The notes: generated by a model from the sequence alone, not told the origin. A stretch of DNA of 64,000 nt from an uncultured Clostridia bacterium (GCA_944383275.1 CALWOV010000003.1:29827-93826); one strand, 5' to 3'. Positions 23,381-56,701 are shown, counted from the first letter of the stretch. Program-made: numbers and translations.

Positions 23381-23680
23381 AAAATATATTTTATTATTAA
23401 AATTTTAGTGTTTTATATGATTTTTTAGAAAAAAATATCTTGTATTATGATATTAATAAAAATAGTTGAACTGATTATTAATGTTTATTTTTATATAATT
23501 TTTCTATAAAATTAATTATTAAGCGCTTTAATTATAGAAAGTTATATAAACAATATAGTTTATTTTTGTATTTTTTTATTTTTTGTAAGATTTAAATAAG
23601 TTTGCCCCAATTAGAATTTAGAGAAAACTTTATTTAATTGGTTAATAATTTTGATTTTAAAAAGTTTACAACTTAATAAC

Positions 23681-23832
23681 TATATTATCGGAAGTCGAAC
23701 CAAGCACAACTTTAGTTGTATTTGAGTGAGACTGATGTTTATTCAAACTGCGATGGCGGGCAAAGCACGCAAATTCGTTAGAATTTATTAAAATTTTATG
23801 TTAGTAAAATTTTAATATCACATAGTTTATAT
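23681..23832 (+). repeat. Non-coding module A, copy 1 (152 bp)
   Basis: Starts TATAT-TATCGGAAGT, has a long hairpin, the central box ACTGATGTTTATTCAAACTG and an AT hairpin, and ends ATATCACATAGTTTATAT. Matches 56550-56701 with 5 substitutions by hand alignment. Confidence 0.85.
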
Positions 23833-23990
23833 TATCGGAAGTTTTGTCTGAATGCATACGAAGCAAAGCGAGTGTATATTCAAGCAAAACTGATGTTAAT
23901 TCAAACAGTGTTGCCGTTGGAACAACGGGTTTGCGTTTAGCAAATTGGTTTGCGAACATCGTGAGCAAAACAACATCACATAGTTTATAT
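23828..23990 (+). repeat. Non-coding module B, copy 1 (163 bp)
   Basis: Same 5-prime, central and 3-prime boxes as module A but different internal hairpins. Matches 56392-56554 with 3 substitutions by hand alignment. Confidence 0.85.
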
Positions 23991-24075
23991 AATAAGAAGT
24001 TTTGTTTGTAAGCACCTATAAGCATTGGCAAGCAAATCTTGTTTATTTGTAATATAAAATGAAGATTTATATTGT
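23986..24075 (+). repeat. Degenerate short module (C), decayed relative of the 56148-56248 mini-module
   Basis: TATAT-AATAAGAAGTTTTGTTTG ... CAAGCAAATCTTGTTTATTTG ... GATTTATAT; boxes recognisable but eroded. Confidence 0.5.
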
Positions 24076-24244: not shown

Positions 24245-24269
24245 TAATAAAAAAGCACACTAGGTGTGC
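24245..24269 (-). terminator. Rho-independent terminator after the U32 gene
   Basis: GCACAC-CTA-GTGTGC hairpin overlapping the stop codon, followed on the minus strand by TTTTTTATTAC. Confidence 0.55.
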
Positions 24270-25522
24270 ATTCTTCTTAATATATCTTTTGGGTTTAATT
24301 TATATGGAGTTTTAATTTTTACTAACTCTTGAACTTTTATTGCAGCCTGAACACTGTTGTTATTACTGTCTATAATTTCTTCAACTTTGAATGTTTTATT
24401 AAAGTTATCATCTGGTGATAGAACTTCTAGCACATCACCTACACTGAATTTATTTCGTTGTTCTACTGTTACATAGCCATCAGAATCAGTTTTTTTAACA
24501 ACATTAGCAATGAAGTCTGCACTGCTTACAGGCAAACTACTTTCTAAACTTTCAGTGTTTCCTTCTCCTAGACAAAACCCTGTTGTGAATTTTCTATGAC
24601 TGCTTTTTTCAAGTTCTTTTACCCATTTTAAATCTGGCTTAAAATTATCTGGGTCTTTTTGAAGCTGATTTAAAACACGCCTATATGCATTTACAACTGT
24701 TGCAACATAGTAGGGTGATTTCATTCTTCCTTCTATTTTAAAACTTGTAACACCTGCCTGTGCCATTTTATCAAGATGATTAATCATACACAAGTCTTTG
24801 CTGTTTAATATATATGTTCCCTTTTCATCTTCTTGAATTTCAAGTTCGTTATCTTTATCTCGAGAAACTTCTCGAACATAGTATTGCCATCGGCAAGCCT
24901 GAACACATTGCCCCCTGTTGCTGTCGCGATTGGCAAGATAGTTAGACAACAAACATCTTCCAGAATAACTGATACACATTGCACCGTGAACAAATGCTTC
25001 TAATTCTATTTCTTTGGGTAAGTAGTCGCGTATTTCGGCAATCTCTGATAAACTTAATTCTCGCGCTAAAATTATTCTTTTAGCACCAGCATCTGCCCAA
25101 AATTTTGCAGCATATTTATTTGACGCACAGGCTTGGGTTGATAGATGAACAGGTAGATTAGGCACAACCTGTTTTGCAAGGCTTAAAATTCCTGCATCAG
25201 AAACAATAATTGCATCTGCGCCAATAGAATATAAAAATTTTAAATAATCTTCAAGACCAATAAAATCTGAATTATGTGCTTGAATGTTAACTGTTATATA
25301 TGCTTTTTTATTTAAAGAATGAGCATAATTAATATATTGTTTTAATTCATCATCTTCAAAATTATCAGAAAAAGCACGAAGTCCCCACTTTTTACCAGCA
25401 AAATAGCAAGCATCAGCACCAAAATAAAATGCTGTTTCTAATTTTTCTTTGTCACCTGCTGGTGCTAATAGTTCAAGTTCCATATTATCCCCTTTCGTTC
25501 CACTGCACAACACAAAGCCCAT
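24260..25522 (-). CDS. Peptidase U32 family protein (TrhP/YrrN-YrrO-like, tRNA ho5U synthesis)
   Basis: U32 N-terminus (ELLAPAG...), 407-420 aa, paired with an upstream O-methyltransferase as in Bacillus yrrM-yrrN-yrrO. Probable start is the ATG at 25483, preceded by AAAGGGGA. Confidence 0.7.
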   Translation of the reverse strand: MGFVLCSGTKGDNMELELLAPAGDKEKLETAFYFGADACYFAGKKWGLRAFSDNFEDDELKQYINYAHSLNKKAYITVNIQAHNSDFIGLEDYLKFLYSIGADAIIVSDAGILSLAKQVVPNLPVHLSTQACASNKYAAKFWADAGAKRIILARELSLSEIAEIRDYLPKEIELEAFVHGAMCISYSGRCLLSNYLANRDSNRGQCVQACRWQYYVREVSRDKDNELEIQEDEKGTYILNSKDLCMINHLDKMAQAGVTSFKIEGRMKSPYYVATVVNAYRRVLNQLQKDPDNFKPDLKWVKELEKSSHRKFTTGFCLGEGNTESLESSLPVSSADFIANVVKKTDSDGYVTVEQRNKFSVGDVLEVLSPDDNFNKTFKVEEIIDSNNNSVQAAIKVQELVKIKTPYKLNPKDILRRMHT

Positions 25523-27950: not shown

Positions 27951-28014
27951 TTTTATTCTCCTTTTATAAAAATTTTTATATTAAAACACATAATAGAAAT
28001 TTCTATTAAGTTTA

Positions 28015-28965
28015 TTAAACTATAAATTTAACTGTATTTAAACTTTCTTGTTCTTCAACCTTTTTAGGTGTAACAATGTTCTCACGGTCAATATAATAAC
28101 GCAAACCATTAAGTTGAAAATATAATACATTATTTACGATGCATGAATATAAAATGCTTGCTGGAATTGTAAATAAACAACCAACACCACAAGTTAAAAT
28201 TAATACACCAACATTAATAACAAATAAAATTACTATTATTGCAAGTTGAGATAACCAAACTGTTTTGAATTTTTTAAATATAGATTTAAAGTTATCTTTT
28301 AATGCTTTAAAAATGCTTTGATTTTTAACAACAACTGCTGGCGCCCAACAACAGAAAAATGCATATCTAAAACTTAATAATAAAATAAGACCTGTAAGCA
28401 AAATTATTGGCCCAAGATAATTCATTATGCCACCTATTGACAACAACCTGAAAGAAAAAATTAAGCCTGTTATTATTAAAAGGTCTAGTATCATAACAGT
28501 TGCCATTTTGCTTAATGCATATTTCACAGAGCGTCCTAAGTTACTGATTAAGCAACCTGTGAAACTTAATTTTGCGCAACTTCCCATAAAACCATACATA
28601 CATTCTGTTATTGCAATATCTGCAAGTGAAAACAAAAACGTTCCACCAAAAACTATGATTACAAATAAAACAATAACCAAAGGTAATAATGTTGACAAAT
28701 CTGCACTAATTATTTCAAAAAATTGATTAATTAAAACAGAAACATTGGTCATAAGTAAATCTATTCTTACATTGAACACATTATCTACAAAAAATTGTGC
28801 AACACGGTCAAAAAAGCCTGTTTGAACCAAACTTTCTATAAGATTATAGCAACAAGCAAGCGAAATTCCTGCCAAAACTATAACGCAAACTAATTGGTAA
28901 AGCAAAACTTTCCAAACCAAGTTAAATCGATTTACAAACAACTTAAAACTGTTGTCAATACTCAT
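28015..28965 (-). CDS. Polytopic membrane protein, unknown function
   Basis: 316 aa with 6 or more long hydrophobic segments; no catalytic motif recognised. Confidence 0.5.
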   Translation of the reverse strand: MSIDNSFKLFVNRFNLVWKVLLYQLVCVIVLAGISLACCYNLIESLVQTGFFDRVAQFFVDNVFNVRIDLLMTNVSVLINQFFEIISADLSTLLPLVIVLFVIIVFGGTFLFSLADIAITECMYGFMGSCAKLSFTGCLISNLGRSVKYALSKMATVMILDLLIITGLIFSFRLLSIGGIMNYLGPIILLTGLILLLSFRYAFFCCWAPAVVVKNQSIFKALKDNFKSIFKKFKTVWLSQLAIIVILFVINVGVLILTCGVGCLFTIPASILYSCIVNNVLYFQLNGLRYYIDRENIVTPKKVEEQESLNTVKFIV

Positions 28966-28974
28966 AGTTTTCCC

Positions 28975-29793
28975 CTATCGAAGATTATAATATGGTCTTG
29001 TATCATAGCGAGTAATATCGTAATGTTCAAAAATTTTTGTTACTGCAAAAATGCACACATAAGGAATTATAAACAATAGCGAAATTGTGTTAAACAAAAA
29101 TTCTAATTTTAACAAACACCCCAATATTGCAAATACAACGCCAACTAAAATAGGTATTAAAATTCCTAAAAAGTTTTTAAATGATTTTTTGTGAAGTGCT
29201 GTGCTTGCGTTACTTAATGCCACGCTGAATGGTGAGCCCATTATTGCCATATCTACACAAGTAACCGACAAAATTGCAAGAACCCACGCAAATGCAAGAT
29301 ATACAAGTAATGTTATTATTGCACAAGCAACAAGCCCAACGACCCAAGAAATTTCATTTATAACAACAATAAAATGTGCAAGCAACATTAAAAGCACGCC
29401 AACAAGCATAAGCAGAAAATAAGATATAAAAATAAGAGCAGATATTAAAAGCACACTTAAAAAGTTGTTATTAAGTTCAGTGGTTTTTAATGAATAACTA
29501 AACTTGCCTGTTCTAAAATGTGATTCAATCTTACCTAAAATAAGACTTACAAACGCGGTGCAAACAAAAATTCCAACAATGAAAAACAACAATGTTAGCC
29601 AATCTATTGCAAACACGGCATTAAAAAAGTCAGCAAATCCATTAATTTCAAGAGTGTTATAGTTCCATAGAAAATTTATAGATTGAAATGGGTTTAACAA
29701 AACCCCAATATATATTGCAGGAATTAATGCAAAAATTAGCATTGGAATTATGTTTTTAAAATAATATAAAAAAGTTGATTTAACAAATTCCAT
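28975..29793 (-). CDS. Polytopic membrane protein, unknown function
   Basis: 272 aa with 6 or more hydrophobic segments; its short polar C-terminal tail resembles that of the neighbouring gene. Confidence 0.5.
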   Translation of the reverse strand: MEFVKSTFLYYFKNIIPMLIFALIPAIYIGVLLNPFQSINFLWNYNTLEINGFADFFNAVFAIDWLTLLFFIVGIFVCTAFVSLILGKIESHFRTGKFSYSLKTTELNNNFLSVLLISALIFISYFLLMLVGVLLMLLAHFIVVINEISWVVGLVACAIITLLVYLAFAWVLAILSVTCVDMAIMGSPFSVALSNASTALHKKSFKNFLGILIPILVGVVFAILGCLLKLEFLFNTISLLFIIPYVCIFAVTKIFEHYDITRYDTRPYYNLR

Positions 29794-29826
29794 AATTTTT
29801 ACACCACACCTTAAAATATTTGTTTT

Positions 29827-29855
29827 AAATTAAAAGTTTGACGAACACTCGTCAA
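29827..29855 (-). promoter_or_regulatory. Candidate promoter with palindromic operator
   Basis: Perfect palindrome TTGACGA-ACAC-TCGTCAA (29838-29855). On the minus strand TTGACG acts as a -35, followed by a 17-nt spacer and a weak -10 TAATTT, upstream of the 29793 start. Confidence 0.35.
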
Positions 29856-30010
29856 TAATTATAAACAAAAAAATTGCTTAACTTTTCTTATATATTATTA
29901 TATAGAATAAACAAAACAAAATCAAATATTTTAAAGTAAATTTATAAATATTTTATTATTTTTTAACCACTGTTAAATTTATGTTAGCACAAAACTTTAT
30001 TTTTGTCAAC

Positions 30011-30042
30011 ATAAAATAAAAAAGGAACCATATGTGGTTCCC
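30011..30042 (-). terminator. Rho-independent terminator
   Basis: GGAACCACATATGGTTCC hairpin followed on the minus strand by TTTTTTATTTTAT, about 20 bp after the stop at 30063. Confidence 0.7.
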
Positions 30043-30062
30043 ATTTTAATTTAATATGTTAG

Positions 30063-30866
30063 TTATTCAAAGTTTATTTGTGCTTTTTCTATATTATTTA
30101 ATTCATTGTTTTTATCGACAAAAACATCGTTTTGCTGGCAATTTTCTGCCTGCTTGTCAAAATTAACTAAACCATTTTCTGCAATAATACTGTTATTTTC
30201 TTCATTTGAATTTACAATGGTTTCAGTTATATAATTTTGATTTTCATTATTATTAATGCTCATAGAATAATCATTACTGTTTGCATTTTCTAATGAATTA
30301 TCATTTATAACTGTTTCAGTTAAACATTCAGAGTTCGTATTTACCTGACTTTGTTGTGCGTCATTAAATTCTTTAATTTCAGTTGTTAAGTTTTCTGTAT
30401 CTTTTTCAGCATTTTGATTTATATCGGTTATATTATCATTGTTTTCTAAATTTATATTTTCATTAGTAAAGTTGCTGTTTATTTCGTTTTCAACCATAAT
30501 ATTTTCTTCACTATTTTGGTTAATTTCATTGTATAAATTTATTTCAGCATTTTGCTCTGCACTGTTATTAACTATTGTATTTTCTGAATTGATAATGTTT
30601 TCAGTTTCACTTATATTGATATTTTCCATTTCTTCCTCACTTTTAATATTTTGATTTTCATTATTATTTTGCGTGGCATTAGGATATGTTAATATTCCAA
30701 GAACAACAAATATACCTAATACTGCATTAATAATTGACATATAAATTTCTTCATTTATATTAAGCCCTAAAGGTTTACCTATGGCTTGAACAAGCAAAAA
30801 GATGGCACTTGCAAGTGATAGCCAAAAACTGTAACTTTTCTTTTGTTCATTAAAATTAAACTTCAA
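30063..30866 (-). CDS. Membrane-anchored N/E-rich low-complexity protein
   Basis: Two N-terminal hydrophobic helices followed by about 190 aa of Asn/Glu/Ile-rich low-complexity sequence. Confidence 0.45.
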   Translation of the reverse strand: MKFNFNEQKKSYSFWLSLASAIFLLVQAIGKPLGLNINEEIYMSIINAVLGIFVVLGILTYPNATQNNNENQNIKSEEEMENINISETENIINSENTIVNNSAEQNAEINLYNEINQNSEENIMVENEINSNFTNENINLENNDNITDINQNAEKDTENLTTEIKEFNDAQQSQVNTNSECLTETVINDNSLENANSNDYSMSINNNENQNYITETIVNSNEENNSIIAENGLVNFDKQAENCQQNDVFVDKNNELNNIEKAQINFE

Positions 30867-31071
30867 AGCCTACACCTCCTTATTTAATTTAAAATTTACT
30901 TTTTATATTTTTATAAATAACACTTAAAAATTAAAATTTATTAAAACTTCTTTATTTTTATTTAACAAAATTAATATATTGATGATTTTAATCTGCTATT
31001 AAACTTTATAAAAGTAATAATAAAAATTTTTAAACATAAATAAAACAGATAAAAAATTACTAAAAGCAATT

Positions 31072-31884
31072 TTATTTTCGTGTATTGTTCCAAGTTAAAA
31101 CATTGTTATACCAAGGTGTTCCGATTGTATCAATTAATTCTTGTTTACCACTGCTTAAAATAGACGCTGCTTCTGACTTGCTTTTTTGTGCTAAATAATT
31201 AATTAAAGTTACTGCCTTATGTTGTTGAACTTGGCTGTTTATGTTTGATAGTTCGTTGTTGATACTTTCATATGTATAAGCATTTGAATTGCTTTGTTCC
31301 ATTTCTTTTGTCAAACTTGCTATTTCATCGTTTAATTTTTTAGCATAAGCAATATCAAAATTTTCAAGAGCATTTTCTTTTTGTGTTTCAAGCAATTCTT
31401 TTTGGAATTGTAAAGAACTCATTTTTATATTATTTTCTTCTTGCAAATCTTGTAATTCAGATTGATAAGTTGAATTAATTTTGTTTAAAGTGTTATCAAA
31501 AATACTTGAATTTCTCCACCCTTTTTCAATAGAACCATAGTTTAAACTGTTTGTTGCATTAAGTTTTTCTGCATCTAAATCTTCGACATCGTCTTGATAG
31601 TCTTTTTGTGCTGTAGCAATTTTTTCATCTAATTTAACTTGTTTTTCGCCATATTTAGCTTCAATAGATTCAATATTGCTTGTTTTATATTGATTTAAAT
31701 TTTGTTCGGCTTGTGCTTTTATGTTGCTTGCTTGAGTGTCTAACTCGTTCTTTTTTGTTAACCATTCGTTAATTCTTGACTCATACATTTTGTCTATATT
31801 ATTAAATTCTTTTTGAATTTCAGAATTTATTGTAAGTTTAGGTAAAGAAGATGCTGAAACTGTTTTTTCAAATTTTTGTGCCAT
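31072..31884 (-). CDS. Coiled-coil structural protein (phage-like), unknown role
   Basis: Last gene of the cluster. The start at 31884 (MAQKFEK) is preferred because GGAGGTG lies 7 nt upstream; the longer ORF to 31980 overlaps the previous gene. Confidence 0.4.
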   Translation of the reverse strand: MAQKFEKTVSASSLPKLTINSEIQKEFNNIDKMYESRINEWLTKKNELDTQASNIKAQAEQNLNQYKTSNIESIEAKYGEKQVKLDEKIATAQKDYQDDVEDLDAEKLNATNSLNYGSIEKGWRNSSIFDNTLNKINSTYQSELQDLQEENNIKMSSLQFQKELLETQKENALENFDIAYAKKLNDEIASLTKEMEQSNSNAYTYESINNELSNINSQVQQHKAVTLINYLAQKSKSEAASILSSGKQELIDTIGTPWYNNVLTWNNTRK

Positions 31885-31957
31885 ATAAGCACCTCCATTT
31901 ATATAATAATTTTTATCATTTATTTGATTAATTAAAAATTTAACATAGTTTTGAGAA

Positions 31958-33529
31958 CTATATTTCGTCTTTAAAGGCATAGTTTAAAACCCCGTGTAAT
32001 CTTCTAAAATATGCATTTCTGCTTTCAAAAAAATATTGACCTTCTGTTACATATCTTTCCTTTGACACTTCTTTTGTATCTAAATTTAATTCTTTAGTGT
32101 AAATTCTTCCTACTCTTGAATAGTAAAATCTAACAATGTTATCAAACAGTGTTGCTGTTACATTTTTACCTGTTCCGATATAAAGTGCAGACTCGTAGGC
32201 AGGAGTTAAAAAGGAACTATTTGTTGGAGTGGTTATTGTGTTGTTATAACAAGGAAGAATATAGAATTTATCATTTTCCCCGTAAAACCCCGGAATACAA
32301 AAATAACCATATTTATTATCTTTAATATCAAAGACACTAAATGCACCATTAACTTCAGATAAACCTGTTGTTAAATACCCCCTGCTGGTTATCCTAGATG
32401 AGTTATCTGTTCCCATTGGAATGAACGACACTTTATCTTTGGTATCGTTTTTTATATGCGCAAACACAATACCCGCTATGTAATAACGATTTATATCATT
32501 GTCTGAGGTCTGTCCTATAGTTAAAGTTGTTCCATTCATTAAATAATCGTTGTAATTAAAGATTTCCACCCCAGTCCACCAATCCACTTTATAATCAGGG
32601 TCTATTGTTGATGTTTTAAACCAAAAACTTCCTAATCTTAAAAAATTGGTATTTGTTATAACCATTATTACAGGTCTTGAAAAATACTGTCCATTTGTAT
32701 CTTTTTCATAACTAGGAAAAATTTGAAAATGCTTTATTACAGTATTAGTTGGAATTAAAAAGAAACCTGATGCAGCTTTTAAATCTGTTTCATTAAGTTC
32801 TGTTTCTGTTTTGTTATTTTCGTCAACAAATCTATTTTCAGCATAACGAGGTCTATATTTCATAAGATAAACCCCATATCTATCTGATGGTATTTCTGTT
32901 AAATGTGTTGGCGATTTATATGCTGGGCAAACAAGTTCACCAAAGTTGTTTTCAAAGTTAAATGCTTCGTGTCCTATTAACTCGTAATGTAAATTTTCAA
33001 GCGAAAAACGAACATTTGTGTTATTTGAATCTTTTGTATAATGATAAGTTTTTAACTCTATTATTGATGGTGTAGAATTAGCAAAGAAATTATATTCAAA
33101 ACTATAAACATCAATGTTATCAGAAAAACTAAACGAATTTTCGTGAATTAATTTACTATCAAAATAAAACTCTACCTTCCCATCACCACTTTCACCAGAC
33201 ACATAACTTTTTATGTCATAAACCACTTTTAATCTTGCAACTGTTTCTTTTTTGACTTGTAGTTTTGCAACAAAATAAGTAGCATCGCTTGTAAGTCGTG
33301 CCTCAAAAAAATAGTTTGTAAACACTTGAACTATATCGTTATCTATTTTATTAAATATTTCAAAGTTTCGTTTATCACGCTTATCTAAAAAAATATTATT
33401 TTCTTGTAAAGAATTTATTTCTTTTTTTACTTTAATTATTTCATTATTATTAACTTCATTTACCTCTTCCATTTCATCTATAAGTTTTAACGCTTTATTT
33501 CCATCGGTATTTTTAAAATTATTTTGCAT
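31958..33529 (-). CDS. Phage-like structural protein (candidate tail, fibre or receptor-binding)
   Basis: 523 aa, beta-rich, aromatic/Asn-rich composition; position distal to the adaptor. Confidence 0.4.
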   Translation of the reverse strand: MQNNFKNTDGNKALKLIDEMEEVNEVNNNEIIKVKKEINSLQENNIFLDKRDKRNFEIFNKIDNDIVQVFTNYFFEARLTSDATYFVAKLQVKKETVARLKVVYDIKSYVSGESGDGKVEFYFDSKLIHENSFSFSDNIDVYSFEYNFFANSTPSIIELKTYHYTKDSNNTNVRFSLENLHYELIGHEAFNFENNFGELVCPAYKSPTHLTEIPSDRYGVYLMKYRPRYAENRFVDENNKTETELNETDLKAASGFFLIPTNTVIKHFQIFPSYEKDTNGQYFSRPVIMVITNTNFLRLGSFWFKTSTIDPDYKVDWWTGVEIFNYNDYLMNGTTLTIGQTSDNDINRYYIAGIVFAHIKNDTKDKVSFIPMGTDNSSRITSRGYLTTGLSEVNGAFSVFDIKDNKYGYFCIPGFYGENDKFYILPCYNNTITTPTNSSFLTPAYESALYIGTGKNVTATLFDNIVRFYYSRVGRIYTKELNLDTKEVSKERYVTEGQYFFESRNAYFRRLHGVLNYAFKDEI

Positions 33530-33532
33530 ATT

Positions 33533-35032
33533 TTAAACCAAATTTATTTCTAATTGAGGATTGGAAATATTGCAAGTATCATCTTCACTTATAAATGAAA
33601 TTGAAAAAAGTTTAGCCCTTAATGAAAGAGGTATTTTAATTGGTTTATTACTTCCCATTACCGAAAATTTATATTCTTTTTCTTCTTCTGTTTTAATAAT
33701 TACTGTTATATCACCTTTACTTAACAAGCATAAATTTCTTAAAACTTTGGTTTTATCTGGATAGCCCATATCTGTTTTTGGAGATGTCCATACCTTTTTA
33801 CTTACAGTGTCAAAAATTTTACCAGAATGTGTAAGTTCGCCTAATTTATTTTGATACTGCGTTTTAAAACACGCAACTAATTTACTTGTTTTGTCTATTT
33901 GAATAGGCCTTAGGGCGCAAATATCTACGCCACGCATAATTAAATATTCCCCAGAATTTATATCAAACTCTACTAATGCATTATTCTGATAGCCCTGTGT
34001 GGCTTCACAACCTATTTGCTGACCATCACCAAAATCTAGTTTACAAGCAAGGTAATATTTCCCATCTAAAAAACCACCAATTGCATTGCTGTTGTCAAAC
34101 TTTGTTATCATATCAACAAAGCCTGCATCAATTTTGCTAAAATTTATCCCATCAAATGAATATAGACCATCTCGACATAACATTAAAATTATATCTCCAC
34201 ATAAAATTGCAGATTTTTCATATATTCTTGAATTTGAAAGTGCTAAATGTTTTATTGTAAAATCGGTTTGTTCCCCATAACCTGACACTCTTGAAATACC
34301 AAATTCTCTTATAATGTAAAGATAATTTTTATAACTTATAACATTATTAAGCCCACCACGCTCGTCATTAATTTCTATGTAACCACCATCAAATTCGCTT
34401 ACATTCCAATTACACGGGTTTGTTTCATCAGAAAACCAAAGTTCATTTTTCATATTTCCAACTGTTGCAAAAAGCCTGTTTGCGTGAGTTGCCAAAGTGT
34501 TGATTTTGGGTGTGTCTGGATATGACACAGGGAAATTTTGCCCGTCCCACGCAGTTAGTTGGTCATTTTCGTTATTACTACAAAATACTATTCTGTTTCT
34601 GCCATCAATATACATATTTATGGCAACCGGTTCACTGTTAAAAGTTAGATTAAGCAATTCATAAAAATTGGTATCAGTTGTATACATTGGTGCCCAATAT
34701 AATTTCTTTTCACTAGTGTAAAAAACTAAAACAGGTTGAAATTCTTCATATGTTTTATTATAGTTATTAAAAAACCAAAAATTTTTTATTTCAGAAACCG
34801 TTGACGGAACTGACATTGTTTTTGTTACATCACCTACTGTTATTGTTAAGTCTTTAAAACCAAGACCATTTGTTAATGCACCAGAACTGAAATCATAGTT
34901 ATAAGTTTGCCTTGCTATGTTTAAAGGTAAAATATTTTGTTCCGTTTTAGTATCAACACCATTTAAAAAGTTTGAAAGTTTAACTTGCAAAACAGTATGT
35001 TCGTTTATAGGTAAAATATCACGATAAAACAC
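33533..35032 (-). CDS. Phage-like structural protein (candidate tail, nozzle or baseplate)
   Basis: The ORF is open to 35116, but AAGGAGGTG lies 8 nt before the GTG at 35032, which overlaps the upstream stop (TAGTG coupling); about 499 aa. Confidence 0.45.
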   Translation of the reverse strand: MFYRDILPINEHTVLQVKLSNFLNGVDTKTEQNILPLNIARQTYNYDFSSGALTNGLGFKDLTITVGDVTKTMSVPSTVSEIKNFWFFNNYNKTYEEFQPVLVFYTSEKKLYWAPMYTTDTNFYELLNLTFNSEPVAINMYIDGRNRIVFCSNNENDQLTAWDGQNFPVSYPDTPKINTLATHANRLFATVGNMKNELWFSDETNPCNWNVSEFDGGYIEINDERGGLNNVISYKNYLYIIREFGISRVSGYGEQTDFTIKHLALSNSRIYEKSAILCGDIILMLCRDGLYSFDGINFSKIDAGFVDMITKFDNSNAIGGFLDGKYYLACKLDFGDGQQIGCEATQGYQNNALVEFDINSGEYLIMRGVDICALRPIQIDKTSKLVACFKTQYQNKLGELTHSGKIFDTVSKKVWTSPKTDMGYPDKTKVLRNLCLLSKGDITVIIKTEEEKEYKFSVMGSNKPIKIPLSLRAKLFSISFISEDDTCNISNPQLEINLV

Positions 35033-35598
35033 TAGAACCACCTCCTTGGTGGCATTTTTACTCCACTTTTTTTGCGTTGTGCCACAAGCATACTTTGAGC
35101 AAACTTTGTGTCCCAAGCACTTGCATCAGAAAACAAACCTTTATAAAGGAAATATCTTGCAACAACGCCGTTAGCAAATGCATAGTCATCTATTTTATAA
35201 GACACATCTATTGTGTCTGTTAACTCTTCAATAAGCGCAGGAGCATAAGTGTATGTGATGATATAATTACCATTTGAACATTCAATAAAAGTTGGAAAAG
35301 TGTTATATTTTTGTTTTATTCCATTATTGTTTTTCACAGAAATTAGTTCTATTAAATTTTTTGATAAATCGGAAAAATTAAATTTATTATTAGAAATTGT
35401 TATATTTTCAGTTGTTTTCAATGGAATATACATAAAGGCTATTAAATGATTTACATCATTAATACAACTTATTATTTGATTTATTTGTGCTTGCTGGTCT
35501 TCTGTTGAAGTTGAAGTTCCACCAAGTTCTGTTATTTGCAAAAGGTTGTTTAAGTTTAAATGCTTGCACACTAGTTTTACTATATCTTTAACAATCAT
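35032..35598 (-). CDS. Candidate head-tail adaptor / connector protein
   Basis: 188 aa; lies after the capsid genes; N-terminus (IVKDIVKLVCKHLNL) resembles gp6-type connector starts; start at 35598 preceded by AAGGAGA. Confidence 0.4.
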   Translation of the reverse strand: MIVKDIVKLVCKHLNLNNLLQITELGGTSTSTEDQQAQINQIISCINDVNHLIAFMYIPLKTTENITISNNKFNFSDLSKNLIELISVKNNNGIKQKYNTFPTFIECSNGNYIITYTYAPALIEELTDTIDVSYKIDDYAFANGVVARYFLYKGLFSDASAWDTKFAQSMLVAQRKKSGVKMPPRRWF

Positions 35599-35609
35599 TT
35601 CTTCTCCTT

Positions 35610-35987
35610 TTAAACCCATCTATCTTTATAGGCATCATTAAAATTTACATCATTATTTTTCTTGTTTGCATAGTCATACATTTCTTTAAGTTTCCACCTT
35701 GCTTCATCATTTTGTACTCGTTTAATCTCTTGTTCTAGTTTTTCATTATGAATTTCCATTTCTTTTATTAATTTATCAGCATTTTCTCTTCTGGTTTTTC
35801 TAACATACGGAACCAGCCTTGCGTCAATTTTATTAAATGGAACAACCAAGCAAAAAGTTTGTTTTTGCCCTGAATTATGCACTTCATATCTTTGTTTATT
35901 TGTGTTATATACAATAAAATAGTTATTATCTATTGCTTTTAGTCTTGATAAAATATCAAAAACATCTGTTGTTATATTTACTAACAT
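35610..35987 (-). CDS. Hypothetical phage-like protein
   Basis: 125-aa ORF between the capsid and adaptor genes. Confidence 0.4.
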   Translation of the reverse strand: MLVNITTDVFDILSRLKAIDNNYFIVYNTNKQRYEVHNSGQKQTFCLVVPFNKIDARLVPYVRKTRRENADKLIKEMEIHNEKLEQEIKRVQNDEARWKLKEMYDYANKKNNDVNFNDAYKDRWV

Positions 35988-36002
35988 ATTACTTCCCTTT
36001 TA

Positions 36003-36031
36003 CAAATCAAGGGTGAGCAAAAGCCCACCCC
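36003..36031 (-). terminator. Terminator/attenuator-like hairpin after the capsid genes
   Basis: On the minus strand, GGGTGGGC-TTTT-GCTCACCC followed by TTGATTTGT, directly after the stop at 36040. Confidence 0.45.
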
Positions 36032-36039
36032 TGATAAAA

Positions 36040-37206
36040 TTAAGATGCAGTTATTGAAAGTTTGCCTTGTCCACCTGTTTTATCACAAATAAGTTCAGCA
36101 TATTTTACCAATGTTGCAGTGTGAATTGGGTATCCTTCTTTTTGTTTCAAAATTCTGCCGTTATCAGAACTTAACCATTCCCAATCACAAAGTTGATGAA
36201 TTTTAAAATCTTTACTGTTTAAAAAGTAAACTTCACCATCTTTAGCGAAACGGTCGGCAACAAAAGGAATACCATTGAATGATATGGTTTTATATCCACC
36301 CTCAAGATTTAAAATGTCAACATTTAATTTATTTGCTGAAAGTTTTTCTTGGTATAATCTTCTTGCATCAAGTGCACCCATTATGAAGTCTATTTCTGAA
36401 CCTTTTTGTTCAGACAATGTGTCTAGAACTTCCATAAAAGATGCTTCTGTAAAATTCGCTTTTGTAACAGATGCACTGTAAGGTTTTAAAAATGGATAAG
36501 TAGTAACCGAGTTACCATAAAGTGTTGCACCTTCAAAAATCGACTTTAAGCCTGTAATTTCTTTATCTTTACTTCCCTGCACATATAAAGATACAGTTTT
36601 TTGAGTGTTTGCCATATCTTCTGTTGCAGCATCACTTAAAGTTATTGTTTTTGTGCCGAAATCACAATTAAGAATTCTTGTTGTATGTGAATAAACGCCA
36701 TCTACATAAATATCAACCATCATTCCTATCATTAAATTTTTAATACTGTCAACTGTGAATGTATAAACATCTTTTGCTGAAGAATTTCCAGACGCTAAAA
36801 GCCCTGTTCCATCTCCGTAAAGCATTCTACTCATATTAAATTTGCTCGCTTCTATCATTCCTTCCATTTCGGCTGTAAGCAAATTTACAAAAGCACCAGC
36901 CTCTGACGAAGATGCACGCAAAGCCTTGTCTGAAAGTTCTATTGTTCCATAAAGGTTTTTTAGCGTAGAGGTTAGCAACAAGTAATTATTAAAGCCACTT
37001 AAAGGCAAAGCACCCACTTCTGTTCCTGCACCAATTCCACCATTAACACCATATGGAACTAATTTTTTTATCGCTTTTCCAACAACATCTTGGCTTGTTT
37101 TTTCAAGTTTTGACAAAAATGGGTGTGTTTTTGTGTTAAGTTGATTTGCTACAATACCAAGATACATAGTTTTAAGCGCTTCATTTGCTGTTTGTAATGT
37201 AACCAT
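36040..37206 (-). CDS. Major capsid protein paralog 2 (presumed HK97-fold)
   Basis: 388 aa, immediately after the scaffold and paralog 1. Shares N- and C-terminal blocks with paralog 1 (LKNLYGTIE, AGAFVNLLTAEMEG, SRMLYGDG, HQLCDWEW, LKQKEGY, TLVKYAEL). Confidence 0.65.
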   Translation of the reverse strand: MVTLQTANEALKTMYLGIVANQLNTKTHPFLSKLEKTSQDVVGKAIKKLVPYGVNGGIGAGTEVGALPLSGFNNYLLLTSTLKNLYGTIELSDKALRASSSEAGAFVNLLTAEMEGMIEASKFNMSRMLYGDGTGLLASGNSSAKDVYTFTVDSIKNLMIGMMVDIYVDGVYSHTTRILNCDFGTKTITLSDAATEDMANTQKTVSLYVQGSKDKEITGLKSIFEGATLYGNSVTTYPFLKPYSASVTKANFTEASFMEVLDTLSEQKGSEIDFIMGALDARRLYQEKLSANKLNVDILNLEGGYKTISFNGIPFVADRFAKDGEVYFLNSKDFKIHQLCDWEWLSSDNGRILKQKEGYPIHTATLVKYAELICDKTGGQGKLSITAS

Positions 37207-37224
37207 AAATTCCCCCTTTAAATT

Positions 37225-38403
37225 TTAAGATAAATTAGTAAGTTTAGCTTGTCCTGCTGGTTTTGAACACATAAGTTCGGCATATTTTACCAAGGTTGCA
37301 ATAAAACTTGCATAGCCTTCTTTTTGTTTTAAAACAGAACCATCTTCATTGCAAAGCCATTCCCAATCGCAAAGTTGATGCATTGCAAAATCATTTGTGT
37401 TTAATAGATACATTGTTCCAGATGGAATAAATTTATCACTTATCATAGGAATTCCATTGAAACTTAAAGTTCTATAGCCACCTTGTAAATTCAATGGTTC
37501 TAAGTTTGCTCGTTTTTCCATTAAAAGTGATGCGAATTTGCGTTTTAATGCACTTGTTGTTGCAATAAAGTTTATTTCATTGCCCGTGCGTTCAAGCACT
37601 GTATCTATTGCAGTTTGAATGTATATATCGTTAAATGTATCACTTGTGGTTTTAGATTTTGTATAAGCGTTTATCCAAGGATAAGATGTTCTATTTACAC
37701 CGTAAATTGAACCTGTAGTTTCGAATATTTTTTCGATACCTGTTAATTCTTGGTCTTTACTGTTTTGCATATAAACTTTGTAACTAGATGCCGATGTTGC
37801 AAATTCGGTTGTAACAACAGTTGATAAAGTTATTTTTTTACTTGCTCTATCAATGCTTGCAATTCGAACTCCACAAAAACCAGAAACTTTAGAAGTGCCA
37901 TTATAAAAATCGATAACCATACCTTCTAAAAGTTTGCTAACATCGTCAACTGTAATTTCATTTTTTGATACATTTGCAGAAGATACAGAGCAAAGACAAC
38001 CACTGCCATCACCATATAACATTCTGCTTAAATTAAACTTACTTGCTTCAAGCAAACCTTCCATTTCGGCTGTAAGCAAGTTTACAAAAGCACCAGCATC
38101 ATCTATTGATGCACGCATTGCTTTATCTGAAATCTCTATTGTTCCATAAAGATTTTTTAGTGTTGATGTAAACAACATATATTTATTTTCTGCACTTTTA
38201 GGTAGAATACCACCTTCATCACCAGCGCCAACACCACCATTAACACCATATGGCGCAAGTTTTTGAATTTCTCTGCCATAAACATCAGAAGTTGTTTGTT
38301 TTATCTGGTTATAAAGTGCATTTGTGTTTGTGTTTAACTGATTACTTACAACGCCAAGATATACATCTTTTAAAGCGTTTTCAGCAGTTTGCATTGTTAC
38401 CAT
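37225..38403 (-). CDS. Major capsid protein paralog 1 (presumed HK97-fold)
   Basis: 392 aa, directly downstream of the scaffold gene; size and position typical of an MCP; conserved blocks shared with paralog 2. Confidence 0.65.
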   Translation of the reverse strand: MVTMQTAENALKDVYLGVVSNQLNTNTNALYNQIKQTTSDVYGREIQKLAPYGVNGGVGAGDEGGILPKSAENKYMLFTSTLKNLYGTIEISDKAMRASIDDAGAFVNLLTAEMEGLLEASKFNLSRMLYGDGSGCLCSVSSANVSKNEITVDDVSKLLEGMVIDFYNGTSKVSGFCGVRIASIDRASKKITLSTVVTTEFATSASSYKVYMQNSKDQELTGIEKIFETTGSIYGVNRTSYPWINAYTKSKTTSDTFNDIYIQTAIDTVLERTGNEINFIATTSALKRKFASLLMEKRANLEPLNLQGGYRTLSFNGIPMISDKFIPSGTMYLLNTNDFAMHQLCDWEWLCNEDGSVLKQKEGYASFIATLVKYAELMCSKPAGQAKLTNLS

Positions 38404-38414
38404 ATATAAAACTC

Positions 38415-39137
38415 CTATTTACTAAAGATTTTTTTTGCCAGTTCTTTTGCTTCTTCAAGTGTAGTTGCTGATTTGATTTGATTTTCAAAATTAACTCCAT
38501 TATTTGAATTTATAAAAGTTGGCACATTAGGTTTTGTGCTGTTAACTTGTTTTAAATAATCTTTTATAACAGCATCACGAACTTTGTTGTTTTTTAACAC
38601 TTGATTAAAATTAGTTTCACTTTCCAAATAATTCTGGTTATTAACAAGTTGCTGTTCTAGAAATTTTAACCAAGCATTATGCAAGGGGTTTTGACTTTCT
38701 GCAATAACCTTATCTTGCAAAATTAGATTAGAGAGTTCTTTTGCATATTCTTTTGCGCGTGGATTTTCTTGCAAGAAATTTTCTACATAACCTTTCCATT
38801 CCTTTTTATCAAATAAATTATTTGTAGATGCCCCTTGCATTTCTTCTTGTTTTTGTAAACTAGACAAAAGTTGACTTTTGCGAGTGAACTCTTTTTCTAA
38901 ATTTTCATAAGCATTTTTTAAAGATTCAACATCTTTAAATTTTCCTAATGGAGAACCATCGGGTAATGGTTGCTCTCCTGTTTTTTCTTTTATATTGCTA
39001 TTATTTAGTGCATTTTCTATGTTTTTTAAAGAATTTTTATCTTGTTCTATGATATTTGGTTTTAAATTTATATTTTTAATATTTAAGTTATTTTCATTTT
39101 GTAAACTTAAATTTGGTGTATTTTCAACAATTTCCAT
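38415..39137 (-). CDS. Candidate scaffolding protein
   Basis: 240 aa, acidic, helical and low-complexity; lies between portal and capsid. Confidence 0.5.
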   Translation of the reverse strand: MEIVENTPNLSLQNENNLNIKNINLKPNIIEQDKNSLKNIENALNNSNIKEKTGEQPLPDGSPLGKFKDVESLKNAYENLEKEFTRKSQLLSSLQKQEEMQGASTNNLFDKKEWKGYVENFLQENPRAKEYAKELSNLILQDKVIAESQNPLHNAWLKFLEQQLVNNQNYLESETNFNQVLKNNKVRDAVIKDYLKQVNSTKPNVPTFINSNNGVNFENQIKSATTLEEAKELAKKIFSK

Positions 39138-39148
39138 AAAAAATTCTC

Positions 39149-41038
39149 CTAATTTTCAAAAACTTTATTTGCTTCTTGTTCTAGTTTTTTAAACTGTTTA
39201 TGTTCCCTTATATGTTTCAAAAGCATATCTTTTAATTCGGCATTTTCTTTACACGCTTTTTCGAAATCTCCACTTAACATAAAATTTATGTGTTCATTAA
39301 TATGTAAATCGTGATTATGAATTTCTAAAACTTCACATTCCTTTTTATTTAAAAACTCAATATTTTCGCGCTTTGCTTTCTGAATTTGTAAAGTGTTTTG
39401 GTCAAGAGCATCTTCCCACATTCCAAACCCAAGCATTTCCAATGTCTTGCTTCTTAATGAATTAGACATCTTTCCGTTCTCATCTAAAAGCAATCCGGAA
39501 TTTAAAAGTTCAAAAACCATATTTCTTTTTTGAGCCACAGTTTGACCAAGTTCAGATTCTGTTTCAAAAGCAATTTCATCTGACGATATATTTCCCCTGT
39601 CCCAATAAAAGAACTCGCTTGCACCGTTTTGCCCAACCACTCGCCCCATTCGATTAGTTGTTGCAAATTGTTTATATAATCTTAATATTTGTTGGGCAAC
39701 CATTTTTAAAGCAAAACAAATATATTCTCCACTTGCAGAAATTCTAGCCTCTTCTTGTTCAATTAAAATTTGCAATGCAACTCCACTCATACTACTTATA
39801 TTTGTTGAACCACCAAGCAAATCACTAACCCCACTTACAGTTATAAATTCACTTTCAAGTCTTTGCTCTTCTTCGGTAAAGTTTGCAGGAACAGAATCCG
39901 TTGCTAATATTTTAGGAGTATTTGAACCTTGTCTGTAAACCAAAACTTTTCCAGGACTTAACCCCTCTTCCTCCAACTCATCAATATCTATAGAGCCATC
40001 TTCTACGGTTAAAATTCCCATAGACAGCCGGTTAATAAATTCGTGTTTCCTATTTTTTATTGCGTTATAAGCGCGTTGAACAGGTATCATTCTTTCTATA
40101 ACACTTCCCCCCCAAAACAAAGATGGTTGTTCAATAGAAATTTGTCGCACAAAAGGAAAACCTCGTTCCCCATATTTTAAATTTTTATAAGGTAATTCAC
40201 CATCGAACACAAGTTTATCACCAGCAACAATAACCAATCTTCCATTTGGGAATTTTTTACTAGGTTCTTCATATCTTTCTATAACCATAGCAGAATCTTT
40301 TTGTTTAGTTTTTTGAAATTTTGAAATATATAATTGATTATCAACAAAGCCATCTGCCTGGACGCTTGACAAAGTGTAGATATCTAAATCTTCGCCTTCA
40401 AGTTTTATACCCCAAACTTTTTCTATTGTATCTACCGAAAAGGGTTTTGCGTGTATTATACTTTTACAATAATTTATATCTGCACTTCCGTTACTGTCTG
40501 GATATATTTCAAATGGAGAACAAACCATAACATCTACATCACCTTCATAGATTCGTTCACCATATGGCGTTATTCCAACAACAGAACCCGAACTGTTATT
40601 CCAAACTATTTTATAAAATGCCGTTCCACAAATTTCACTCCATCTAGTTGCTTGAGAAATTAATTTACTCATATCAAGTTTATTAGATATTGATTGCAAA
40701 ATATTTTTACTAACTTTTGCATTACTTAAATCATCTTCATCAGAACTTGCTGGAAGAACTGTCATGGTTGGTCTTACTTTTGCAAGTTTTGCAATTCTAC
40801 TTTCTAATATTGGTGCTATATGATTGTAAACTTGTTTTTCTTCCCAAAAATATTTTTTATCAATTTCGTTTTGTATTTGACTTTGTGTTACTTCACAATA
40901 CTGATTTCCTAAAACAAAATTTAAGTTTAATTGCCATTGTGTTTCAAAAGGTTTTCGTGCTTCATGCCTTTTTTTAAAATCATTCCAAACATCTTCAACT
41001 AACTCTTTTTCATAATCTTTTTTATTTGTGTTTTTCAT
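39149..41038 (-). CDS. Phage portal protein
   Basis: 629 aa; N-terminal pattern RKPFETQWQLNLNFVLGNQY is typical of portals; lies after the terminase. Confidence 0.8.
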   Translation of the reverse strand: MKNTNKKDYEKELVEDVWNDFKKRHEARKPFETQWQLNLNFVLGNQYCEVTQSQIQNEIDKKYFWEEKQVYNHIAPILESRIAKLAKVRPTMTVLPASSDEDDLSNAKVSKNILQSISNKLDMSKLISQATRWSEICGTAFYKIVWNNSSGSVVGITPYGERIYEGDVDVMVCSPFEIYPDSNGSADINYCKSIIHAKPFSVDTIEKVWGIKLEGEDLDIYTLSSVQADGFVDNQLYISKFQKTKQKDSAMVIERYEEPSKKFPNGRLVIVAGDKLVFDGELPYKNLKYGERGFPFVRQISIEQPSLFWGGSVIERMIPVQRAYNAIKNRKHEFINRLSMGILTVEDGSIDIDELEEEGLSPGKVLVYRQGSNTPKILATDSVPANFTEEEQRLESEFITVSGVSDLLGGSTNISSMSGVALQILIEQEEARISASGEYICFALKMVAQQILRLYKQFATTNRMGRVVGQNGASEFFYWDRGNISSDEIAFETESELGQTVAQKRNMVFELLNSGLLLDENGKMSNSLRSKTLEMLGFGMWEDALDQNTLQIQKAKRENIEFLNKKECEVLEIHNHDLHINEHINFMLSGDFEKACKENAELKDMLLKHIREHKQFKKLEQEANKVFEN

Positions 41039-41176
41039 ATTTATCTCCTTAAATTTTTTAATATTAAAACAGCAAAATATGCTGATTGTTTTTAATAAAT
41101 TGATTAAATTTTATTATTTTTAATGCTTTTTATTGTTTTATTATAAATTTTTATCTTTAATTATGATATTTGATAT

Positions 41177-42938: not shown

Positions 42939-43020
42939 TTTATTCTCCTTAAAGAATTATCAACAAAAAACTTATTTAATTTATATTTTTTCTTCAAATT
43001 AGGTTTAATTTTGCAATAAA

Positions 43021-43056
43021 AAACAATAATTGCACATGAAAGCACAATTATTGTTT
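43021..43056. promoter_or_regulatory. 12-bp-stem inverted repeat between terL and the divergent gene
   Basis: AAACAATAATTG-N12-CAATTATTGTTT. On the minus strand it is followed by TTTATTGC (terminator-like), about 85-120 nt upstream of the terL start. Confidence 0.4.
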
Positions 43057-56147: not shown

Positions 56148-56248
56148 TATATAATCGGAAGTTTTGTCTGCAAGTGCATATTGGCATTCGCAAGCAAAAC
56201 TGATATTTATTTACACTGTATTAAAATTTTACATCACAAAGTCTATAT
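56148..56248 (+). repeat. Mini-module D (101 bp) of the same family
   Basis: TATAT-AATCGGAAGTTTTGTCTG, hairpin, CAAGCAAAACTGATATTTATTTACACTG ... ACATCACAAAGTCTATAT. Has the 5-prime, central and 3-prime boxes but lacks the second hairpin region. Confidence 0.7.
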
Positions 56249-56396
56249 TACAAAAAGTTTATATAAAATTTGGGTTTACTTTAACTTTACATAAATAGTA
56301 ACTAAATCAAATTTATGCCGATAAACATCAGTTTTAAAGTAATTTTTCAATTCGCTAAAAATTTTCATTTTAAAATTGTTACGGCGCAATTTATAT
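56249..56396 (+). repeat. Possible highly degenerate module
   Basis: Begins TACAAAAAGT (compare TAATCAAAAGT at 62577) and ends TTTATAT; contains AACATCAGTTTT, the reverse complement of the central box; otherwise unrecognisable. Confidence 0.25.
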
Positions 56397-56554
56397 TATC
56401 GGAAGTTTTGTCTGAATGCATACGAAGCAAAGCGAGTGTATATTCAAGCAAAACTGATGTTAATTCAAACAGTGTTGCCGTTGGAACAACGGGTTTGCGT
56501 TTAGCAAATTGGTTTGTGAACATCGTGAGCGAAACAACATCTCATAGTTTATAT
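56392..56554 (+). repeat. Non-coding module B, copy 2 (163 bp)
   Basis: Differs from 23828-23990 at 3 positions by hand alignment. Confidence 0.85.
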
Positions 56555-56701
56555 TATCGGAAGTCGAACCAAGCACAACTTTAGTTGTATTTGAGTGAGA
56601 CTGATGTTAATTCAAACTGTGATGACGGGCAAAGCACGCAAATTCGTTAGAATTTATTAAAATTTTATGTTTGTAAAATTTTAACATCACATAGTTTATA
56701 T
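56550..56701 (+). repeat. Non-coding module A, copy 2 (152 bp)
   Basis: Differs from 23681-23832 at 5 positions by hand alignment; its last base is the first base of the murF-like stop-codon triplet. Confidence 0.85.

Follow-up and report, generated by a model that had tools for sequence, protein, structure and literature searches.

A family of small, structured mobile DNA elements in uncultured gut Clostridia whose dif-like core is authentic in one half

The described systems closest to the elements reported here are IMEXs and CTX-phi, integron cassettes, the pdif modules of Acinetobacter, and the PATE and REPIN families. IMEXs and CTX-phi are phages or islands of 5-60 kb that have no integrase of their own and reside at the chromosomal dif. 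XerC-mediated strand exchange in IMEXs requires homology on the XerC side alone, and in CTX-phi a single XerCD substrate forms when the two inverted dif-like sites of the single-stranded attP(+) fold together. Integron cassettes are added and removed singly by exact recombination at attC, a site that folds as single-stranded DNA into one long, imperfectly palindromic hairpin, and IntI is a member of the Xer-related tyrosine recombinases; to our knowledge, complete integrons are essentially unknown in Firmicutes. The pdif modules are discrete, gene-carrying plasmid segments that have XerC/XerD-type 28-bp sites at their boundaries, alternating (inverted) in orientation, and that occur in varied combinations. 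PATEs and REPINs are small, non-autonomous intergenic repeats with hairpins near their ends, which lack terminal inverted repeats, insert 3' of a short motif, excise seamlessly and leave no target duplication. The present family is a hitherto undescribed group of active mobile elements, very small and structured, in which half of the dif core is authentic.

The window, i.e., the whole stretch of 64,000 nucleotides that was analysed, comes from a low-GC (~30%), cell-walled Firmicute that carries murF, ddl, murG and plsX-rnc-smc-ftsY, and the public sequences nearest to it are metagenome-assembled genomes (MAGs) of uncultured gut Clostridia/Christensenellales. Its units all lie on the + strand, and bit scores given here are those of a covariance model of the family. 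At locus 1, unit A1 (147 nt, 23685..23831, 82.5 bits) is followed directly by unit B1 (158 nt, 23832..23989, 128.7 bits) and by the left-half remnant C' (23990..24060, a weak 12.4 bits), in which a degenerate arm, TAATAAGAAGT, precedes hairpin 1 and a decayed box. Read along the + strand, A1 consists of TTATCGGAAGT, hairpin 1, an internal box (ACTGATG-TTTATTC-AAAC-TGCGATG, 23731..23755), hairpins 2-4, ATATCACATAG and TTTATA, and the box recurs in B1 (+ strand, 23889..23913) as a repeat family within the window. Locus 2 holds a single short unit, C (96 nt, 56152..56247, 66.4 bits), with the arm TAATCGGAAGT and the right end ACATCACAAAG-TCTATA. Locus 3 has the reverse order to locus 1, B-A rather than A-B: B2 (56396..56553, 119.8 bits) and A2 (56554..56700, also matched by the covariance model) are each 97% identical to B1 and A1, respectively, and the TTTATA of A2 is flush with the murF stop codon TAA (56701-56703). 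A2 is fixed in 10 other assemblies, all 10 of which break within units. Farther along lie the left-half remnant E (+ strand, 62577..62649, 31.7 bits, E = 2.5e-4), composed of the arm TAATCAAAAGT, hairpin 1 and the box CTGATGTTTTTTAAACTGAGATG, and a decayed full unit, D (+ strand, 62807..62952), which was found by strain comparison, reads TTACAAGAAGT ... ACGACACATAA-TTGATA and adjoins the obg stop codon. The remnants at 23990-24060 and 62577-62649 and the decayed unit at 62807-62952 are additions to the members named in an earlier, sequence-only reading of this DNA. That reading had described non-coding units of about 150 bp, and those around the complete sites are indeed 147-158 bp long and free of ORFs; across the window, units measure 96-158 bp and none contains an ORF.

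When a species-representative genome collection was searched with a pattern of left arm, 30-55 nt and internal box, 95 stretches were found in 30 MAGs, all of uncultured Clostridia/Christensenellales type and often at contig ends. The covariance model gave 137 matches at E ≤ 0.001 in the 665 kb of loci found by the pattern, a few of which are opposite-strand echoes inside arrays. The family comprises more than 120 copies in 30 MAGs, in more than 80 arrays dispersed over many contigs. Its consensus on the + strand runs TTATCGGAAGT, hairpin 1, ACTGATG-TTTATTC-AAAC-TGTGATG, hairpins 2-4, (A)CATCACA-TAG and TTTATA, so that the unit's own ends are TTATCGGAAGT on the left and CATAGTTTATA on the right. 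The conservation of left arm and box across MAGs arises partly by construction, because a match had to contain ATCGGAAGT and the box, while the pattern set no condition on the right arm, the hexamers or any of the hairpins. Arrays are intergenic, with 72 of 82 overlapping no long ORF, and at least one unit remnant seems to provide a neighbouring gene with the -35 box of its promoter. Hairpin-1 classes reassort freely with hairpin-2-4 classes at the 25-nt conserved box, from which we infer that the box is also a recombination point, whatever the route. An autonomous long version, sought through orphan left and right ends, yielded noise and related subfamilies only. Two patterns run against viral contigs gave 0 matches, as did blastn against PLSDB plasmids and INPHARED phages, a tRNA scan gave nothing, and the literature search found no paper with the junction or box sequence and no description of Xer-type MITEs.

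The units are mobile: they come and go singly, with exact breakpoints between TTTATA and TTATCGG. Among conspecific contigs that are 98-100% identical, locus 1 exists in four allelic states with exact boundaries, namely A and B together, A, B, and an empty AACTATA|TAATAAG. The window reads AACTATA|A1|B1|TAATAAGAAGT; A1 is absent from L253 (AACTATA|B1|C') and B1 from L260 (AACTATA|A1|C'), in which A1 carries the diagnostic arm AATATCAC; L254 (AACTATA|C') lacks both; and L255, identical to L001, is likewise empty with one SNP (AACAATA|C'). The resident C', present in all strains compared, is the landing site of A1 and B1. Since insertion alone or deletion alone would need a parallel event to produce these four states, single units must be added or removed exactly at the junctions. 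A second variable site lies at the end of D (62952|62953), which is empty in the window, L264 and L272 and filled in L263, L265, L266 and L270, where an A-type unit stands between the D hexamer and the obg stop codon. No unit-sized indels were found elsewhere, in 1-21.5 kb or 25.6-54.4 kb, across ~20 strain contigs. The sequence-only reading had envisaged integration and excision, with later integrations landing in resident sites; empty, A-only, B-only and A+B alleles are all present in one species, and new copies do settle at the ends of resident units, building head-to-tail arrays. Units also multiply within genomes: in one MAG, four unrelated loci each have a copy preceded by a TTTATA hexamer, and the four copies are 100% identical. 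Public assemblies of the window species break inside units.

On the minus strand, the junctions between units form the 28-mer ACTTCCGATAATATAAACTATGTGATGT, which occurs three times in the window, with 1, 3 and 1 mismatches to its consensus: between A1 and B1 (23815-23842; ACTTCCGATAA-TATAAA-CTATGTGATAT), between B1 and C' (23973-24000; XerC-type arm degenerate, ACTTCTTATTA) and between B2 and A2 (56537-56564). By chance, 0.00 copies are expected (100 dinucleotide shuffles). The layout of two 11-bp arms around a 6-bp spacer, read earlier from the sequence, is borne out, and complete sites do lie between units only; the outer ends of arrays carry half-sites (left arms at 23685-23695, 56152-56162 and 56396-56406; right arms at 56231-56241 and 56684-56694) that abut TATA-containing flanks. 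The dif of Bacillus subtilis, as used for that reading, agrees with the published sequence (Kono et al., 2011; PMC3025954), and the three full sites are the top 3 matches to it among 128,000 window positions, with 21, 20 and 20 of 28 positions identical. It is the A1/B1 copy that has 21, where 20 had been counted, one too low. All other positions in the window reach 19/28 or less, and both 19s are relatives of the unit family.

The likeness to dif is uneven between the two sides of the junction. The XerC-type arm ACTTCCGATAA is identical (11/11) to the predicted dif arms of Desulforudis and Macrococcus, and together with the spacer, as ACTTCCGATAA-TATAAA, it matches 16 of 17 positions of ACTTCCGATAATATATA, the XerC half of the commonest metagenomic dif. 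That dif, ACTTCCGATAATATATATTATGTAAACT, made up 51 of 120 among the matches listed in a metagenome scan for the pattern ACTTCCGATAATATAWATTATGT, which occurred at at least 120 loci. Judged by these identities, the XerC-type half of the joint appears to be a bona fide, widespread dif half. The arm on the XerD side matches at 7/11 positions only and lacks the invariant first T of TTATGT, a motif that every canonical, Xer-type dif predicted in Firmicutes retains, as do all metagenomic matches listed; at its place the units have CTATGT, CTATCG, CTAAGC and others. The outer 7 nt of this 'XerD arm' differ between subfamilies and covary with an internal segment, the box-adjoining one, and its standing as a conserved protein-binding sequence is not supported. 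The dif-like character that the sequence-only reading gave to the whole junction therefore stands for the XerC-type arm and is not supported for the XerD-type arm. On the XerC side, too, the inner ATAA is missing from the left arms of minority subfamilies (CTCAAGGAAGT and ATCAAGGAAAG). The dif-like half of the joint suggests, and does not prove, that a housekeeping recombinase has been hijacked.

The sequences on either side of the insertions show what the target contributes. At 51 non-tandem boundaries the left flanking hexamer is T64 T78 T70 A94 T90 A100, while at right boundaries (n = 72) the element's hexamer is 91-100% TTTATA and is followed by T55 T86 A61; the landing sequence is (T)TTATA|TTA, mostly at a resident unit's end. 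This pattern of conservation implies that the element brings TTTATA with it and that the host hexamer need match only the three bases next to TTATCGG (ATA). In dif orientation, the unit boundary is the boundary between XerC arm and spacer (GATAA|TAT), give or take the few bases that element and target have in common. The inner 4 nt of the right flank match the arm at 2.52 positions (background, 1.44) and the left flank is TTAT-like (MWU p = 0.007), and the flanks weakly resemble the inner dif core, TAA-N6-TTAT. Solo targets have this inner-core likeness alone, TATA|TTA, with no recognisable XerC or XerD arms beyond the inner 3-4 nt. Stop codons were considered as the origin of the TTA flank and rejected, since a convergent stop codon adjoins only 4/66 arrays. 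Orientation is unbiased with respect to the replication strand as told by GC skew (37 vs 35 in 72 locus-strand groups; 31 vs 29 where |skew| > 0.05), and there is no preference with respect to gene strand (29 vs 37).

The hexamers on the two sides of a single insertion are often unequal, TTTATA being paired with ATAATA in L007, GTAATA in L027 and GTAACA in L082, and the hexamers are for this reason not a target duplication; that model was rejected. The same inequality bears on the reading of the units as classical DDE-type MITEs with imperfect terminal inverted repeats, TTATCGGAAGT and CTATGTGATGT, and a 6-bp TTTATA target duplication. The two arms are inverted repeats at 7/11 positions and many copies have TTTATA on either side, as such MITEs would, but excision is seamless, empty sites are free of footprints, and the internal structure and the covariation of arm and box have no role in DDE transposition, all of which makes this reading highly improbable.

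A secondary structure of the units is strongly supported. It has 49 pairs, 39 of them with compensatory changes; 88.4% of cells are paired vs 37-43% in slid controls, the covariation score is 0.435 vs ≤ 0.11 in slid controls, and 0/500 shuffles reach the observed value. RNAalifold independently returned hairpins 1, 2 and 4, in which single positions show as many as four types of Watson-Crick pair. Covariation links the right arm to the segment adjoining the box (CATCACA/TGTGATG, CGACACA/TGTGTCG, CGCCACA/TGTGGCG and ACTTCC/GGAAGT), in a helix that reaches 12 bp in L038; GTTT of the hexamer pairs with AAAC of the box, and the left arm is able to pair with ACTGATG, in columns that are invariant. 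The internal box is, in effect, an imperfect inverted copy of the joint, with which both unit ends pair, and compensatory changes preserve this pairing; in A1, where the box is such a copy of the junction, its flanks pair with both unit ends. As single-stranded DNA, the unit folds with z = -5.2. In this predicted fold the right arm is sequestered, ATA|TTATCGG lies in a linker between two domains, the predicted cut point is in that single-stranded linker, 3 nt past a helix, and the XerC arm is broken by a GGA bulge or single-stranded. Counts of G.T and A.C, 187 vs 145 outside the invariant helix, are near balance, and the fold therefore looks to act at the level of DNA rather than RNA.

Such near-balance is not seen in transcribed RNAs and weighs on the possibility that the units are structured RNA genes or cis-elements, such as sRNAs or stability or attenuator elements, whose copies homologous recombination at joint and box has duplicated, deleted and shuffled. 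The strong, covarying multi-hairpin structure, the reassortment of halves at the 25-nt box and the intergenic position, often at gene ends, would all suit such RNAs. They would not account for the absence of an orientation preference relative to genes, nor for identical copies at unrelated loci behind TTTATA, where there is no flanking homology to template homologous recombination. Rfam 15 had no match in the window at gathering scores, and at E up to 10 locus 1 had chance-level hits only, so that Rfam offers this reading no match either; we regard it as improbable. A hammerhead-like reading of CUGAUG...AAAC was rejected by eye, as helix II, A9 and GAAA are missing.

The elements do not sit at dif, since GC skew in the window is uniform, being negative throughout 39 kb that span the three loci, and the MAGs have upwards of 80 arrays at scattered positions. 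Units were at none of the 120 dif-bearing metagenome loci among the matches listed. The scan for canonical dif returned many genuine dif sites, none from the unit-bearing clade among the matches listed; no stand-alone dif was found in ~830 kb of clade sequence, and GC-skew bracketing of MAG contigs found no terminus.

Searches for an enzyme point away from a linked gene. All-against-all clustering of 679 ORFs gave no gene that recurs beside units; phmmer detected no Xer-like or IS608-TnpA-like ORF among 2,056 six-frame ORFs in ~830 kb of flanks, covered as 8-kb pieces of the MAGs, with sequences of E. coli XerD and IS608 TnpA as queries and with RAYT proteins being divergent; and a Pfam search of 18 ORFs of the window, all Xer-sized candidates included, found no recombinase or transposase. 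These results bear on a dedicated, non-Xer recombinase encoded elsewhere, for example a prophage or ICE integrase of the tyrosine or serine type, that would use the joint as its core site; the Xer-like arm would then go back to an ancestry shared by the core sites of tyrosine recombinases and not to use of the housekeeping enzymes. The arrays and the exactness of gain and loss would fit such an enzyme equally well, the loose target choice is more integrase-like than XerCD-like, and the window does carry a phage-like cluster. It is nonetheless a distinctly unlikely source of the mobility: no integrase is present among the candidate ORFs of the window or in any flank searched, no linked gene recurs in the 30 species-level MAGs, and the arm is identical to real dif arms, which is more than similar.

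We consider a Xer-family enzyme the best candidate, because of the authentic XerC half-site, the crossover at the position where XerC cuts and the asymmetric need for homology. Our main reading, to which we give a rough probability of 45%, is that a tyrosine recombinase of the Xer family moves the units in trans, as cassette-like mini-elements and perhaps by way of a folded single strand. A conservative, site-specific recombinase of this family, either the host's XerC/XerD or some paralogue, would act in trans on the joint as its core site. The enzyme would bind the XerC-type arm ACTTCCGATAA and exchange strands at the boundary of arm and spacer; the right-hand hexamer would travel with the element, and the left-hand hexamer, derived from the host, would need only the three arm-proximal bases (ATA). 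The covariation of arm and box and the inverted copy in the box suggest that the enzyme may act on one folded strand, much like that of CTX-phi attP(+) or integron attC, and a single-strand route would permit copy number to rise. The more specific form of this proposal, gene-less, self-folding mini-IMEXs that would each be little else than a dif-like core and an internal inverted pseudo-copy by which the single strand presents the site, and for which host XerC-type exchange would drive insertion and excision at mimics of the dif core throughout the chromosome, giving mixed tandem arrays, is more tentative.

Several observations speak against an Xer enzyme. The solo targets lack arms, and use of such sites by XerCD is not known; the XerD arm is free to vary, besides the minority left arms that lack the inner ATAA; the folded XerC arm, with its predicted GGA bulge or single-stranded state, would not be an obvious Xer substrate; and deletion alleles could in principle come from recombination between 15-16-bp direct repeats. 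Furthermore, precise excision, a short 5' target and end-proximal hairpins would suit HUH transposases equally. The main rival is accordingly an unlinked HUH (Y1) enzyme acting by 'peel-and-paste', like that of IS200/IS605-derived PATEs or of REP/REPIN-RAYT. It would recognise the hairpin domains, with the AAAC:GTTT and box:arm pairings guiding cleavage, cut after TTTATA at both ends, and release a single-stranded circle that re-inserts 3' of (T)TTATA, the likeness to dif being a coincidence. Such an enzyme would explain why excision is seamless and without target-site duplication, why insertion is always 3' of a hexamer ending in ATA, why stable, covarying hairpin domains stand by both ends with the cut point in a single-stranded linker, why the fold looks DNA-level and why copy number rises within genomes. 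What it leaves unexplained is the 16/17 match of arm and spacer to a genuine, widespread dif half, very unlikely by chance, the preference for TTA in the right flank, and the lack of orientation bias (37 vs 35; 29 vs 37), which is strong in IS200/IS605. No TnpA-like ORF was found in the ~830 kb, with an IS608 sequence as the query and RAYT proteins being divergent. On this evidence, the HUH explanation seems to us unlikely, though it deserves serious attention.

Set beside the described systems, the units borrow features from each of IMEXs, integron cassettes, pdif modules and PATEs but lack defining traits of each. Like IMEXs and CTX-phi, they have no integrase of their own, have an authentic XerC-type arm and spacer with a poor XerD side, form tandem arrays parted by complete sites, with the mapped crossover where XerC cuts, and, like attP1/attP2 of CTX-phi, have within the element a further copy of the site, inverted and able to pair with the first in single-stranded DNA. 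They differ from these in being non-coding and 147 bp long, in using dispersed TATA|TTA sites and resident unit ends instead of the chromosomal dif, in that single units appear to excise, and in the outer 'XerD' arm, which varies freely while pairing with the internal box. With integron cassettes they share exact, single addition and removal, the use of short secondary targets and, with attC, a predicted single-stranded fold of an imperfect palindrome in which recognition appears to rest on structure (covariation) more than on sequence, with unpaired conserved bases by the helices; the internal box recalls the R and L boxes. Unlike cassettes, they have no ORF, the whole unit being the structured site, and their arrays are dispersed, with neither an intI/attI platform nor a tyrosine recombinase beside any array. 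The attC consensus R''/R' (RYYYAAC/GTTRRRY) is not found, as the units pair TTCAAAC with GTTTATA; the unit boundary falls after TTTATA and not at G|TT, with the right hexamer travelling with the element; and there are two multi-hairpin domains instead of one long hairpin.

Like pdif modules, the units are discrete modules bounded by XerC/XerD-type 28-bp sites and occur in varied combinations, whereas their sites are all direct and they are non-coding, chromosomal and internally structured, with no plasmid match. The resemblance to PATEs and REPIN-RAYT extends to small size, lack of autonomy, intergenic position, hairpins near the ends, seamless excision without target duplication, insertion just 3' of a short motif, and an internal sequence that pairs with the end near the cut. 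The unit ends are inverted repeats, if weak ones (7/11). The absence of a replication-strand orientation bias and of a TnpA or RAYT found near copies, the head-to-tail arrays of mixed subfamilies, and ends that make a dif-like two-arm site set them apart. By their defining traits the units fall outside the known IMEXs, not being at dif, outside PATEs, having no strand bias, outside integron cassettes, having neither platform nor R-box consensus, and outside pdif modules, being non-coding with direct sites.

There is a substantial chance, though short of an even one, that these units are a new class of gene-less, self-folding elements that exploit Xer recombination away from dif. If they are moved by Xer, they would be the smallest known elements to exploit the machinery of chromosome-dimer resolution, as well as the first non-coding ones and the first to occur beyond dif; dispersed repeats could then be sown genome-wide by housekeeping recombinases, and the family would be a natural bridge between IMEXs and integron cassettes. 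With its size of 147 nt and its clear covariation, the system lends itself to assays in vitro. Irrespective of the enzyme, the family is an undescribed active repeat of abundant, uncultured Clostridia of the human and animal gut, one that fragments the metagenomic assemblies of its hosts and whose units yield strain-level markers.

The mobile cassettes, hereafter units, are non-coding, hairpin-rich and about 147-158 bp long, and in the window two of their arrays end immediately at TAA stop codons, those of murF (56701-56703) and obg (62953-62955), both minus-strand genes, so that the TTA on the right flank of the insertion point in the target (T)TTATA|TTA is supplied by the stop codon itself. 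The MAGs show this arrangement at 4 of 66 arrays. The array with unit A1 (23685-23831) adjoins a U32 peptidase gene (24260-25522), which was compared with its counterparts on contigs L253-L262. In most strains the called protein has 407 aa; that of L255 has 417 aa, and at this site in the window the longest table-11 ORF encodes 420 aa. The gene call in L255 extends 30 nt further at its 3' (stop-codon) end, the end towards the unit array, so the length difference resides partly there; part of it may simply be start-codon choice.

A 44-nt motif with an internal palindrome, ATATCTTG...ATGATAT, is found in four copies in the window (23411-23454, 39013-39056, 41127-41170 and 62757-62800) with 70-75% identity. 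The last copy reaches exactly to the left hexamer of the decayed unit D (62807-62952), and the copy at 23411 precedes unit A1 by about 230 nt. The motif might serve as an operator or promoter, or be a piece of an older element.

The window also harbors a phage-like gene cluster (28000-45000), bounded by the genes for RNase J and SSB/gyrA. It includes genes for a large terminase (41460-42938; PF03237), a P22-type portal (39149-41038) and a DUF7934 protein (31072-31980), a holin-domain ORF (30063-30866) and two tandem paralogues (36040-37206 and 37225-38403) with 72-75% DNA identity. No integrase is found between 28000 and 45000. Given this lack and its presence in every one of about 20 conspecific contigs compared, the cluster is possibly a prophage that has become fixed or domesticated, or else a GTA-like element. 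In strain L234/L259, an indel is found at about 30974-31115, and no gene is called there for the DUF7934 protein.

Between unit C (56152-56247) and unit B2 (56396-56553), the covariance model of the family matches 56314-56388 weakly and partially (E = 4.4), and the minus strand carries a ACTGATGTTTAT box near 56330. The stretch probably represents a decayed, oppositely oriented unit. Two groups of loci represent sister subfamilies, the first at L062 1991-2139, L075 60-208, L088 6027-6175 and L048 983-1131, and the second at L091 1777-1915, L035 4688-4801 and L073 668-781. Both keep the unit architecture but differ in their left arms (CTCAAGGAAGT; ATCAAGGAAAG) and in their boxes (ACTGACGCCGAATCAAAAC; GCTGATTTCAATC). 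The inner ATAA of Xer sites is missing from these arms, and at the loci examined a canonical unit stands immediately upstream of the subfamily member.

On the 585-kb scaffold_34 of ERZ16268216 (L263), the A-type unit at about 2470-2560 contains an N and a duplicated stretch of about 45 nt. This is probably an artefact, with the repeat misleading the scaffolding. Beyond this scaffold, many public contigs of the window's species terminate within units.

On L009 (CAMEJD010000002.1), an inverted and truncated unit fragment (reverse strand, 3910-4010) adjoins a complete unit and forms TTGACA-17 nt-TATAAT immediately upstream of an HTH-Fic-domain gene, whose product carries the HPFxxGNGR motif. The -35 box of this promoter-like sequence is derived from the hairpin-1 stem, and the spacer contains ACTTCCGATAA. 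Judged from this sequence, unit remnants may create promoters.
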